64,000 nt of DNA from a virus (lineage: Duplodnaviria > Heunggongvirae > Uroviricota > Caudoviricetes). Shown piece by piece: positions 27,283-29,717 of this stretch. Made by a program: the position numbers and the translations under genes. Location: the IMG/VR virus record IMGVR_UViG_3300035696_000002. One strand, written 5' to 3'. The notes beneath the pieces are model-generated. The model saw only the letters and a program-made list of their open reading frames with translations. It was not told the DNA's origin and ran no database searches. Position 1 is the first letter of the stretch. Each line of letters begins with the position of its first letter.

Positions 27283-27356
27283 TGGCTGCCCCCCAAGGAT
27301 TCGAACCTCGCTTTCCTGATTCAGAGTCAGGCGTCCTACCGCTAGACGACAGGGCA
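27283..27356 (-). tRNA. tRNA-Gln(CUG)
   Basis: Cloverleaf TGCCCTG...CTGA-CTCTGAA-TCAG...TTCGAAT...GCCA. Confidence 0.9.
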
Positions 27357-27361
27357 AAATT

Positions 27362-27435
27362 TGGCTGGGTCGGAGCGATTCGAACGCCCATAGACTGATT
27401 CAAAGTCAGCCGTCCTGCCGTTAGACGACAACCCA
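27362..27435 (-). tRNA. tRNA-Gln(UUG)
   Basis: Cloverleaf, loop CTTTGAA, encoded CCA. Confidence 0.9.
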
Positions 27436-27439
27436 AAAA

Positions 27440-27516
27440 TGGCACCGGGTGATGGGTACGATCCACCATCATACGGGTCAAAGCCGTAGGCCTTCTTCCG
27501 TTTAGGCGAACCCGGT
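27440..27516 (-). tRNA. tRNA-Gln(UUG), atypical T-loop
   Basis: ACCGGGT/ACCCGGT acceptor, TACGG-CTTTGAC-CCGTA, T-loop ATCGTAC, G-CCA. Confidence 0.75.
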
Positions 27517-27521
27517 AAGTT

Positions 27522-27607
27522 TGGAGCCGATGGAGGGATTCGAACCCCCGTGGGATTTCTCCGGCAGTTTACAAAACTGCTGCAATCGACCACTATGCGA
27601 CATCGGC
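27522..27607 (-). tRNA. tRNA-Thr(UGU) with long variable arm
   Basis: GCAGT-TTTGTAA-ACTGC; variable arm CGGA-GAAA-TCCCAC; G1-C72, C2-G71, U73. Confidence 0.8.
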
Positions 27608-27611
27608 AAAT

Positions 27612-27884
27612 CTAAGCTCTTCGTGCGAACCCGGTCACGACCACGGGTTTTGCTTTCGGTTCTGGCGGATTGTCGATCACCCACGCCAGATGGGCTGCAA
27701 ATAATTTTTCGTATTCGGCCTTGAGGGCATTTCCCTCGTCGATCATCGCCTGATCGTTGGCTTTGATGCCAGCGGCCAATTTTCGGAGGAAGCTACGCCG
27801 TGCTTCCAGTACCTTGGAATTCTGATACAGCAAGTCAACCTGCTCGTCAGACAAAGGCAATTGCCGGGTTCTCCCTAGCAGCAC
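27612..27884 (-). CDS. Small hypothetical protein inside tRNA operon
   Basis: ORF track; TAG stop 4 nt before tRNA-Thr. Confidence 0.45.
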   Translation of the reverse strand: MLLGRTRQLPLSDEQVDLLYQNSKVLEARRSFLRKLAAGIKANDQAMIDEGNALKAEYEKLFAAHLAWVIDNPPEPKAKPVVVTGFARRA

Positions 27885-28189
27885 ACCCCGTTCATCGCCG
27901 GGCCTGAGTTATCGTAGCCGCAGCGATCATCCCAACAGGCCTTGCACCTTGCGGAGCCGGGGCCGGGTTGAGTGGGTGTCCCACAATCAATGCAAACGGA
28001 AGTCTGCAATCGCGGGACGTAACATCCGGGACACGGAACACTCTCGTACCACTCGATCATTTCCTTCACCCACTGCTCTTTCGTCTTGCCCAACTTCGCG
28101 AACAACTCGGGCTTGTAGCGTGGATGATCGAAACTGGTAATCACCTGCACGTGCCCGCAACGATGCTTCACTTCCATCTTCTCGTTCAT
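27875..28189 (-). CDS. Cys-rich hypothetical protein inside tRNA operon
   Basis: CGH...CPGC, CIDC, CKAC; ATGA overlap. Confidence 0.5.
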   Translation of the reverse strand: MNEKMEVKHRCGHVQVITSFDHPRYKPELFAKLGKTKEQWVKEMIEWYESVPCPGCYVPRLQTSVCIDCGTPTQPGPGSARCKACWDDRCGYDNSGPAMNGVCC

Positions 28190-28380
28190 GACAACCTTTC
28201 AATAGCCGTTAGGATGTTCTGTTCCTGCTCCACCAAAGCCGCCGCCCAGCCCTTCAAATTCTGCTTTGCTCGGGCACCTGCGAGTGTGTTGCGTGTCATC
28301 TGCAACTCGCTCTGGTAGTGTCTCAACAATACGACCCGCACTTCCGGGTCACTCAGATCATAATACTCGTATGCTTTCAT
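28186..28380 (-). CDS. Small hypothetical protein
   Basis: ORF track; starts just after tRNA-Thr(GGU). Confidence 0.4.
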   Translation of the reverse strand: MKAYEYYDLSDPEVRVVLLRHYQSELQMTRNTLAGARAKQNLKGWAAALVEQEQNILTAIERLS

Positions 28381-28384
28381 AAAC

Positions 28385-28459
28385 TGGAGCTACGGGTGGG
28401 AATCGAACCCACAGCCTCTCCCTTACCAAGGGAGTACACCGCCGTTGTGTTACCGTAGC
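28385..28459 (-). tRNA. tRNA-Thr(GGU)
   Basis: CTCCC-TTGGTAA-GGGAG, TTCGATT, T-CCA. Confidence 0.9.
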
Positions 28460-28463
28460 AAAC

Positions 28464-28539
28464 TGGAGCCGAAGAGGGGACTCGAACCCCTGACCTACCG
28501 CTTACGAGGCGGTTGCTCTACCAACTGAGCTACTTCGGC
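28464..28539 (-). tRNA. tRNA-Thr(CGU)
   Basis: Canonical cloverleaf, ACCGC-CTCGTAA-GCGGT, T-CCA. Confidence 0.93.
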
Positions 28540-28710
28540 GAAATCTTCCGGGTCAACATAAAAATAATCGCGACCCAATGTGTGAACGGCCTCTGCCAGT
28601 TCACGATACTCCGGCGTCCATGTGCTGGCGGGCATCTGCTTGGTGAGGCTCTTCAAATGAGCCCACGCCATGCAAGAATCTTCGTACCGCTTTCGCCAGT
28701 CACTCGCCAT
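28495..28710 (-). CDS. Small hypothetical protein overlapping tRNA-Thr(CGU)
   Basis: ORF track; TAG stop lies inside the tRNA. Confidence 0.35.
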   Translation of the reverse strand: MASDWRKRYEDSCMAWAHLKSLTKQMPASTWTPEYRELAEAVHTLGRDYFYVDPEDFAEVAQLVEQPPRKR

Positions 28711-28782
28711 CGTCTGTACCCATAAAGGGGCTTATTGTGCCCTAAACGACCCCTGTATGGGTACGATATGACACATTGATCT

Positions 28783-28856
28783 TGGTACACCCGCATGGAT
28801 TCGAACCACGATCTCACGCTAATCAGGCGTGGGCCTTGCCGTTAGACGACGGGTGC
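28783..28856 (-). tRNA. tRNA-Ile(GAU), U37 variant
   Basis: CACGC-CTGATTA-GCGTG, TTCGAAT, A-CCA. Confidence 0.82.
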
Positions 28857-28867
28857 ATATTTACGTG

Positions 28868-29044
28868 TGGTGCAGCCGTTGGGCTGTGAAGCTACTCGCC
28901 GCACCGCACGGGTGTCGCTTTTGTTATCTGGCTCAGCTTACTTGTACGTCATCCGGCCCTTTCGGTCGCTCACGCTCCTACTCGGTACCCCGGACTTCAC
29001 TTTCAACAGTCCAGCGTGTGCAGTTGCTTACCAAGCTGTCTGCA
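28868..29044 (-). ncRNA. Unknown ~177-nt structured RNA ending in CCA
   Basis: Ends pair (TGCAG/CTGCA-CCA, TTGG/CCAA, AAGC/GCTT, ACTGCAC/GTGCGGT, CGCT/AGCG); fills the gap between two tRNA-Ile genes. Confidence 0.55.
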
Positions 29045-29048
29045 TACT

Positions 29049-29125
29049 TGGTTGGCGGGGCGAGATTTGAACTCGCGACCACACGATTATCGGTCGTGGG
29101 CTCTACCGGGCTGAGCTACCCGCCA
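29049..29125 (-). tRNA. tRNA-Ile(GAU), C33 variant
   Basis: CACGA-CCGATAA-TCGTG, TTCAAAT, A-CCA. Confidence 0.85.
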
Positions 29126-29396
29126 AAACCTGCTCAAAAATTCTGCGGCATTCGCAGCCGGGAACGTTGTGTTCGTTCTCCCCAAAACAATCGGGGCTCG
29201 GCTGATCTTGCCTCACTTCAATCTTCACTTCCGGCAACGGCTTCGAATCCAGTATCTCCAGAAACTCTTCCAGATGCCTGACGACTTTCTTGTAGGCCCC
29301 CTTCAAGTGGCCGACATGGCCGAAGCCGTCGCCTTCAAGAGCCTTTCCATCCGCCCGGAGGCGGACGATAATGTCTGCGATCTCATTCCTGTCCAT
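29103..29396 (-). CDS. Small hypothetical protein overlapping the tRNA-Ile 5' end
   Basis: ORF (start MDRNEIAD); TAG stop in tRNA D-arm. Confidence 0.4.
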   Translation of the reverse strand: MDRNEIADIIVRLRADGKALEGDGFGHVGHLKGAYKKVVRHLEEFLEILDSKPLPEVKIEVRQDQPSPDCFGENEHNVPGCECRRIFEQVLAGSSAR

Positions 29397-29517
29397 CGTC
29401 ATCATACGAGTCGCCACAATCGAGGCAGTAATGATGCCCCGGCTGATCCTCGTCCTCCACGTAGTTGTGGCCGTTGAACTCGCAAGCCGACCATTCAGAG
29501 TAATCTTCGTCTGCCAT
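29383..29517 (-). CDS. 44-aa acidic Cys/His peptide (MADEDYSEWSACEFNGH...HYCLDCG), first ORF after the attenuator
   Basis: Manual translation; GGGGGA RBS; below ORF-track length cutoff. Confidence 0.45.
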   Translation of the reverse strand: MADEDYSEWSACEFNGHNYVEDEDQPGHHYCLDCGDSYDDDGQE

Positions 29518-29529
29518 AATTTCCCCCGG

Positions 29530-29558
29530 AAACACAAAAGCCGCCCGTTTGGGCGGCT
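29530..29558 (-). terminator. Attenuator terminator of the Ile/Thr/Gln tRNA operon
   Basis: AGCCGCCC-AAAC-GGGCGGCT-TTTGTGTTT. Confidence 0.85.
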
Positions 29559-29582
29559 CGGAAGTCTCTGATTTCTCTTGGG

Positions 29583-29678
29583 TTACGTTACGATAACCCC
29601 ATCAGACACACCCGAACCACCGCCCGTAATTGTAATACGTTGCGTCGTGGTAGTTCGCGTTGTCTGTGTCTGCTTCAT
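29583..29678 (-). CDS. 31-aa Thr/Gln/Ile-rich leader peptide MKQTQTTRTTTTQRITITGGGSGVSDGVIVT
   Basis: Manual translation; ThrL-like composition; lies between promoter and terminator; codons 20-26 form the antiterminator arm. Confidence 0.8.
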   Translation of the reverse strand: MKQTQTTRTTTTQRITITGGGSGVSDGVIVT

Positions 29679-29688
29679 GATCTCAATA

Positions 29689-29717
29689 AGTATGCACGTA
29701 GACGAGAAACTTGTCAA
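29689..29717 (-). promoter_or_regulatory. Sigma70 promoter of the leader/tRNA operon
   Basis: TTGACA (29717-29712)-17 nt-CATACT (29694-29689); ATG 10 nt downstream (near-leaderless). Confidence 0.75.

Follow-up and report, generated by a model that had tools for sequence, protein, structure and literature searches.

Leader-peptide attenuators control amino-acid biosynthesis operons, as in the case of thrL, trpL, hisL, leuL and pheL, and ilvL of the ilvGMEDA operon is multivalent. Leader-peptide control also acts on synthetase genes, as in pheM-pheST of E. coli. Here we describe a putative attenuator of this type, designated c3, which precedes eight transfer RNA (tRNA) genes for Ile, Thr and Gln in a giant phage from peat soil. 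The unit lies on the minus strand of a stretch of 64,000 nucleotides (nt), hereafter the window, from the IMG/VR record IMGVR_UViG_3300035696_000002 (Caudoviricetes).

The unit shares with the attenuators of biosynthesis operons a promoter, an open reading frame (ORF) containing regulatory codons, mutually exclusive hairpins (1:2, 2:3 and 3:4, all predicted here), and an intrinsic terminator. Like that of thrL, its leader is rich in Thr and Ile and has a tail rich in Gly, here specified by the G-rich region 2, and like that of ilvL it is multivalent. A preliminary description, made from the letters of the window, had called the architecture thrL-type. The functional likeness stood and homology did not, as the Rfam covariance models gave no Thr_leader match, and no T-box match either, between positions 26000 and 36000 of the window at expectation values (E) up to 1. 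Unlike biosynthesis attenuators, c3 would control tRNA genes, that is, the molecules sensed; it is encoded by a phage, and its messenger RNA (mRNA) would be nearly leaderless. The phage units also appear as a parallel family, each serving another block of tRNA genes and selective for isoacceptor codons. The genes regulated in the classical scope are biosynthesis or synthetase genes, and those downstream of c3 are the eight tRNAs and small ORFs without a Pfam family.

In Deinococcus deserti, leaderless leader peptides are predicted before cysS and other synthetase genes (PMC4007540). As in c3, a gene of the translation apparatus stands behind a leader peptide with cognate codons both in Deinococcus and in pheM-pheST, and the predicted translation of leaderless transcripts in Deinococcus resembles what we propose for c3. 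These leaders differ from c3 in that their targets are tRNA-charging enzymes, their specificity is for a single amino acid, and they are chromosomal. T-box riboswitches likewise sense tRNA status and switch between terminator and antiterminator upstream of translation-related genes. Unlike c3, whose sensor would be an ORF, they bind tRNA directly and do not need a ribosome.

The tRNA arrays of phages are usually explained by codon-usage compensation or by the replacement of host tRNAs lost in infection. As in the large phages with such arrays (T4, T5, KVP40 and huge phages), the phage studied here encodes a near-complete tRNA set. Unlike those arrays as described, its arrays are divided by amino acid into blocks, with a separate putative sensor in front of each. 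The codon-usage view was repeated for Tunturiibacter phage Tunturi 5 (PMC11924767); the published Tunturi paper lists the tRNAs and does not mention leaders. Our full-text literature search turned up neither a report of tRNA genes controlled by a leader peptide nor a paper on demand-responsive regulation of large-phage tRNA arrays. As far as found, what is new here is the tRNA genes as the target, so that the product is the sensed molecule, together with the phage setting and the parallel, codon-matched units; the mechanism itself is known.

Leader region and predicted RNA switch of unit c3

Unit c3 begins with a sigma-70-type promoter, which is followed by a short ORF (Table 1). Both had been named in the preliminary description, together with a strong terminator behind the ORF, and all three were recovered by our analysis. 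Within codons 3 to 18 of the ORF, 14 of the 16 specify Thr, Gln or Ile. Thr is written with all four ACN codons, Gln with CAG (twice) and CAA, and Ile with ATT (twice); the operon itself supplies tRNAs for these 14 codons. Among the 6,659 short ORFs that the genome contains, only a fraction of 1.5e-4 matched the Thr/Gln/Ile block this well. The tRNAs had been assigned previously as Ile(GAU) (two genes), Thr(CGU, GGU and UGU) and Gln(UUG twice, CUG), and ARAGORN and Rfam agreed on all eight. Because the leader ATG begins only 10 nt past the -10 hexamer, the leader mRNA would be nearly leaderless.

The terminator has a G+C-rich stem (29559-29538), followed by the tail TTGTGTTT, and was the top-scoring terminator-like site of the 10 kb scanned. 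The full 166-nt leader folded as 1:2 plus 3:4 at -63.2 kcal/mol (z = -4.1), an energy that none of 200 shuffled sequences equalled. When region 1 was left out (101-nt segment), the minimum-energy fold was the 2:3 structure at -43.5 kcal/mol (z = -3.5), in which a helix of 29625-29601 with 29572-29551 covers the terminator 5' arm. The preliminary description had proposed this pairing between the 3' part of the leader ORF and the terminator arm. The 1:2 helix, formed by codons 3 to 10 with region 2, is an element beyond those named there.

The folds of the growing transcript were then compared by length. The 1:2 hairpin was best up to 130 nt, the 2:3 structure was ahead by no more than about 3 kcal/mol at 140 to 144 nt, and 1:2 plus 3:4 was best from 150 nt onward. 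The order of these computed folds is that expected for trp-type attenuators. We also folded the leader with a ribosome masking a footprint of 30 nt and with region 4 not yet made, a check that the preliminary description had suggested. The result was attenuator-like: the terminator 5' arm was 87-98% paired with the A site at codons 2-14, and its pairing dropped to 19-48% with the ribosome over region 2 (codons 17-25).

Based on these features, we conclude that c3 is likely to be a functional ribosome-mediated (leader-peptide) attenuator that controls transcription of the phage tRNAs. Transcription would begin at the leader promoter, and the first 96 nt would be translated at once. Given an ample supply of charged Thr, Gln and Ile tRNAs, the ribosome would pass codons 3-18 and move onto region 2, leaving region 3 free. 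If no ribosome is loaded, the 1:2 hairpin would form first, and region 3 would again be left free. The free region 3 would allow the 3:4 terminator to form, and transcription would stop ahead of the tRNA genes. Slow decoding of ACN, CAR or AUY codons would instead stall the ribosome over region 1, so that the emerging region 3 would pair with region 2 and the 5' arm of the terminator would be sequestered. RNA polymerase would then continue into the eight tRNA genes, two for Ile and three each for Thr and Gln, and into the small ORFs that lie between them. The outcome would be negative feedback on the supply of exactly the operon's own tRNAs. That the leader is translated, that ribosomes stall on it, that readthrough is regulated and that the eight tRNAs are transcribed together are steps that we infer.

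Parallel units in the genome and in related phages

The window is part of one virus record of 463,033 bp, which has a G+C content of 55%, ends that overlap and a CheckV completeness of 100. Baseplate J and other phage proteins are encoded in the window, and Pfam Terminase_6N had no match in the 463-kb genome. The genome contains a permuted transfer-messenger RNA (tmRNA) and 68 tRNA genes, which form seven blocks according to amino acid. Besides the Thr/Gln/Ile block of c3, five further blocks are preceded by a promoter and a short ORF rich in the codons of its own block, and a canonical terminator follows in four of these five.

We scored the match of each leader to each block as the share of leader codons decodable by the block tRNAs under standard wobble rules. 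Each of the six leaders had its highest decodable share on its own block. The true assignment of leaders to blocks was the unique best of the 720 permutations, with a diagonal sum of 3.41 against a mean of 1.15 (codons 2-18). The match extends to isoacceptors: TTA is confined to the leader of the block that carries tRNA-Leu(UAA), and CTN and TTG are the choice of the Tyr/Leu/Phe leader. The preliminary description had asked whether leader codon content covaries with tRNA content, and such covariation was seen both in the other blocks of this genome and in related phages.

A blind scan of the 463 kb was performed for a promoter, an ATG-initiated ORF of 10-61 codons and a perfect-stem terminator within 70 nt, ignoring composition. 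It yielded exactly five units, all of which lie directly upstream of tRNA blocks. The leaders of the four canonical units other than c3 had fold z-scores of -1.8, -3.0, -5.7 and -1.7. For all four there is an alternative 2:3 fold, with pairing between the terminator 5' arm and the distal portion of the leader ORF. Among the five canonical units, c1, c2 and c5 lead directly into a tRNA. Judged from sequence, the genome appears to hold at least five such units, each apparently tuned to its own tRNA block.

Relatives were found through the identity of the baseplate protein (Table 1). The tRNAs of Tunturi 5 are grouped in another way, in three blocks for Leu/Cys/Tyr/Ser, for Gln/Gly/Thr/Pro/His/Ala/Phe and for Trp/Asp/Met/Lys/Val/Arg/Glu/Ile/Gly. 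Each of its putative leaders (L006:1657-1755, 9723-9836 and 22074-22223) matches its own block in content, has a terminator and can also take up the 2:3 fold; one leader carries the annotation hypothetical protein gp308. The true assignment of leaders to blocks was the unique best of six permutations. In LR745208.1, six leaders that match their blocks follow TTGACA/TATACT promoters; one of these, a 10-codon ORF ahead of Tyr/Cys/His tRNAs, contains four His codons together with a single Cys and a single Tyr codon. The true assignment was again the unique best, here of 720 permutations, a figure that is less clean because the leaders were picked by eye.

The IMG/VR relatives contain orthologous leaders for four of the units of this genome. 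In all tested related units with a canonical T-run terminator, truncated folds gave the 2:3 alternative. An orthologue of the c3 leader (L024:5309-5401) has an identical terminator stem, and among its first 16 codons 9 are identical, 5 are synonymous and 2 are non-synonymous, a pattern that points to selection on what is decoded. Its 2:3 helix is preserved despite two one-sided changes. The leader ATG, the reading frame and the position of the stop are preserved in orthologues, and the first tRNA in L024 begins about 10 nt past the terminator with no ORF between. A 221-kb relative (G005, IMGVR_UViG_3300035181_000471) has a single mixed array of 37 tRNAs. Upstream of this array is a 34-codon ORF (L029:10984-11088, minus strand) that samples 19 of the 20 amino acids and is followed by a terminator; from its codon content, this leader seems to be a variant of the device that samples amino acids in general.

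Other searches for relatives gave little. An IMG/VR scan with the 324-aa upstream neighbour protein returned no relatives, and a degenerate promoter pattern had no match in IMG/VR. The exact 17-mer and 26-mer from region 3 and the terminator retrieved from IMG/VR only an already known relative and one chance match. The match L001, considered as a relative, was rejected, as it lies inside a coding region and has no tRNAs. A 17-nt degenerate pattern of region 3 had at least 119 matches in a metagenome scan and was unspecific; none of the 80 listed had a similar terminator context.

The tRNA genes of the c3 operon are accompanied by other sequences. The preliminary description had spoken of a tRNA operon; the eight tRNAs are as stated, and the operon does not consist of tRNAs alone, since six small ORFs are interspersed among them and the first tRNA lies about 400 nt beyond the terminator. 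A Pfam search of eight ORFs (six in the operon and two upstream neighbours) matched no family. Both small ORFs between the terminator and the first tRNA are missing from L024, where tRNA-Ile directly follows the terminator. A hint in the same direction is a second, related phage contig in the peat samples of this phage, which seems to be without this 774-nt stretch, the leader region being joined directly to a tRNA. The 192-nt spacer separating the two tRNA-Ile genes was not structured above shuffles (z = -0.9).

Table 1 Locations of the c3 features, the other leaders and long tRNA genes of the genome, and the relatives. Positions without a prefix refer to the window.
Feature	Location	Strand	Remarks
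Sigma-70-type promoter, TTGACA-17 nt-CATACT	29689-29717	minus	10/12 consensus matches
Putative leader ORF, 31 codons plus TAA, ATG start	29583-29678	minus	Read directly from sequence
Regulatory codons 3-18 of the leader	29625-29672	minus	9 Thr, 3 Gln, 2 Ile, 2 Arg
Region 1, 5' strand of predicted 1:2 protector hairpin, on codons 3-10	29649-29672	minus	1:2 about -30 kcal/mol
Region 2, G-rich, codons 18-26, predicted partner of region 1 or region 3	29601-29625	minus	Folding
Small predicted hairpin, leader stop codon in 3' strand, within loop of 2:3 structure	29580-29599	minus	Folding
Region 3, predicted antiterminator 3' strand, contains terminator 5' arm	29551-29572	minus	2:3 about -38 kcal/mol
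Intrinsic terminator (3:4), 9-bp stem, 4-nt loop, T-rich tail	29528-29559	minus	-18.5 kcal/mol
First small ORF past terminator, 44 aa, acidic, Cys pairs	29383-29517	minus	No Pfam family
Second small ORF, 100 aa from first ATG, end overlaps first tRNA	29103-29405	minus	No Pfam family
tRNA-Ile(GAU), first tRNA of block	29049-29125	minus	ARAGORN and Rfam
tRNA-Ile(GAU), second copy	28783-28856	minus	ARAGORN and Rfam
tRNA-Thr(CGU)	28464-28539	minus	ARAGORN and Rfam
tRNA-Thr(GGU)	28385-28459	minus	ARAGORN and Rfam
tRNA-Thr(UGU), 86 nt, long variable arm	27522-27607	minus	ARAGORN, Rfam and direct reading
tRNA-Gln(UUG)	27440-27516	minus	ARAGORN and Rfam
tRNA-Gln(UUG)	27362-27435	minus	ARAGORN and Rfam
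tRNA-Gln(CUG), final gene of block	27283-27356	minus	ARAGORN and Rfam
Putative leader	L007:323-403		Block Ser x4 and Leu(UAA)
Putative leader	L008:243-341		Block Trp/His/Arg/Asn/Gln/Cys/Lys
Putative leader	L009:257-388		Block Val/Gly/Ala/Asp/Cys/Glu
Putative leader	L010:246-323		Block Tyr/Leu/Phe
Putative leader (c7)	L011:242-313		Block Pro/Met/Phe/Gln; atypical
Other tRNAs of 86-93 nt	Genome 89428-89514, 89864-89951, 93461-93548, 342299-342388, 346044-346133, 346158-346250
Tunturiibacter phage Tunturi 5	PP885688.1		309 kb; baseplate protein 47% identical; cultured on an acidobacterium, Finnish tundra soil
GenBank relative, uncultured	LR745208.1		485 kb; baseplate protein 29% identical
IMG/VR contigs			Baseplate protein 46-56% identical

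Alternative explanations for the leader

Several observations weigh against an attenuator of this kind and are collected here. No clear Shine-Dalgarno sequence precedes the leader and its 5' untranslated region is very short, so translation of the leader would have to be leaderless or nearly so. The two Arg codons within the regulatory run match no tRNA in the block. A weak promoter-like site (9/12 matches) is present past the terminator, at 29395-29368. In equilibrium folds that contained the complete terminator, masking the ribosome removed the c3 terminator only in part (lowest P = 0.45), and the terminator probability in such folds was uneven across units. In view of this weak masking effect, the switch would have to be kinetic, as in classical attenuators. 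RNAalifold, applied to the few orthologues, found no 2:3 pair with a compensatory double change; the 2:3 helices of two leader families have four one-sided changes with pairing preserved, and with two or three sequences per family covariation neither proves nor disproves the helix. The hairpins of the LR745208.1 units have no canonical T-runs, and the Pro/Met unit (c7) of this genome has a hairpin without a T-run and is not canonical. The sequencing runs that contain this DNA are of peat-metagenome DNA only, two of the contigs being probably its source, with no RNA run listed.

Among the other explanations, the one that survives best accepts a real attenuator and assigns it a different role; we consider it unlikely. 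The leader would sense general translation capacity or transcription-translation coupling, or it would mainly regulate the small protein genes, and the codon bias would merely tune its sensitivity. The interleaving of the six small ORFs with the tRNAs is consistent with this, as is the expectation that any slow ribosome would yield readthrough, and the leader of G005 samples 19 amino acids ahead of one mixed array. Regulation of small proteins is hard to reconcile with L024, in which the tRNA lies within about 10 nt of the terminator and no ORF intervenes, and with c1, c2 and c5, three of the five canonical units, which go straight into a tRNA. A general sensor would also not need block-specific codon matching at the level of isoacceptors.

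It is very unlikely that a structured 5' leader contains the short ORF by chance, with a terminator that is constitutive or controlled by a protein and a codon match due to coincidence or base composition. In favour of a chance frame are the weak ribosome-binding site and the lack of compensatory covariation among orthologues, and translation of the leader is itself deduced. Chance does not readily account for the blind scan, in which five of five detected units head tRNA blocks, or for the rarity of ORFs that match the block equally well. In three genomes the true leader-block assignment was the single best permutation. Moreover, the substitutions between orthologues are of the synonymous type, and the ATG, frame and stop position are kept.

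We regard as highly improbable a T-box-like element, in which uncharged tRNAs would pair directly with the triplets and stabilise the antiterminator with no ribosome involved. The regulated genes here are tRNAs, and T-box elements also switch between terminator and antiterminator. Against this, neither a T-box nor any other cis-regulatory Rfam family was matched at E up to 1, and the triplets are in frame within an ORF that runs from ATG to stop and whose frame is conserved. In addition, the run lies in the 1:2 helix and not in a specifier loop, and no conserved T-box-like bulge was seen.

Capture of a thr-operon leader from a host chromosome, placed beside the tRNA genes by accident, is scarcely credible: a Thr/Ile-rich leader with a Gly-rich tail does recall enterobacterial thrL, but the leader has no Thr_leader match, its sister leaders serve sets without a biosynthetic counterpart (e.g. 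Lys/His/Asn/Arg/Gln/Trp), and the unit is orthologous in related phages.

Further stable-RNA genes and biological meaning

The atypical Pro/Met/Phe leader (L011:242-345, genome 345941-346044) is followed by a long hairpin that lacks a T-run. The 3' arm of this hairpin holds CATCCCG, which is identical over 7 nt to the 3' acceptor strand of the next tRNA-Pro; because this motif is common to both, the hairpin could pair with the 5' acceptor strand of tRNA-Pro. The hairpin may therefore be a different switch that acts at the level of processing. The orthologue of this leader in G003 (L026) does carry a terminator-like hairpin.

An extended promoter motif, consisting of a TTGACA-like -35 element, then TCGA..CC and then GTATTAT, has 12 matches in the 463 kb. 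Eight of these lie before tRNA-block leaders, a suppressor tRNA or the tmRNA, or within the Pro/Met block. From these positions, the motif seems to mark a class of promoters reserved for stable-RNA genes. Promoters of this special type precede the suppressor-tRNA(CUA) genes and the tmRNA, in both cases with no leader. The tmRNA is of the permuted two-piece type (window 35103-35448, minus strand; Rfam tmRNA_permuted, 73 bits), its tag peptide ends in AAA, and its promoter, at about 35479-35451, is of the extended type found at the tRNA blocks and is followed by no leader ORF. Three tRNAs with the anticodon CUA (amber suppressors) are located at 30999-31317 of the window on the minus strand, one of them with a tRNA-type promoter directly before it and no leader. 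Recoding of TAG was considered and appears unlikely, as 17% of the frames that stay free of stops for at least 200 codons end in TAG.

A gene for bacterial class A RNase P RNA (L009:1912-2232, genome 305811-306131) was identified with Rfam RF00010 at 208 bits, the gathering score being 100. It lies outside the window, inside the Val/Gly/Ala/Asp tRNA block and behind the putative attenuator of that block; the phage would therefore bring its own ribozyme for 5' processing of tRNAs. In bacteria, long variable arms are normally limited to Ser, Leu and Tyr tRNAs. In this phage, tRNAs of 86-93 nt carry Thr, Asn, Gln, Arg, Phe and Pro anticodons, one in the c3 operon and the others at six genome sites (Table 1). 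Long variable arms were read directly in the Thr(UGU) and Pro(UGG) tRNA genes, and the two long tRNA-Pro genes were called by ARAGORN and not by the Rfam tRNA model.

The signal that would set the c3 switch in motion can be pictured in several ways. Destruction of host tRNAs by a defence system is a possible trigger. Homeostatic feedback on the joint pool of host and phage tRNAs fits equally well, as does tRNA expression timed to the decay of host tRNAs.

Beyond the single unit, we put forward more tentatively that the phage may run a modular, codon-resolved, supply-on-demand translation network. Slow decoding of a set of codons would turn on the sorted tRNA block whose own leader is matched to them, and the design might be widespread in huge phages, including a cultured phage of Acidobacteria. 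No description of translation-coupled attenuation of tRNA genes was found for any organism. The idea is testable at the bench and not in metagenomes alone, because the same architecture is found in Tunturi 5, a phage kept in culture together with the host Tunturiibacter psychrotolerans X4BP1.

If this is true, the phage would be independent of, and resilient to, the loss of host tRNAs, whether by host shut-off or by tRNA-cleaving defence nucleases. The leaders would form a natural index of the codons read by each, sometimes oddly built, phage tRNA, and thus a sequence-only route to the decoding assignment of unusual phage tRNAs. Such a network would also explain why the tRNA genes of huge phages are sorted by amino acid, and how the phage fits tRNA supply to demand in infection.

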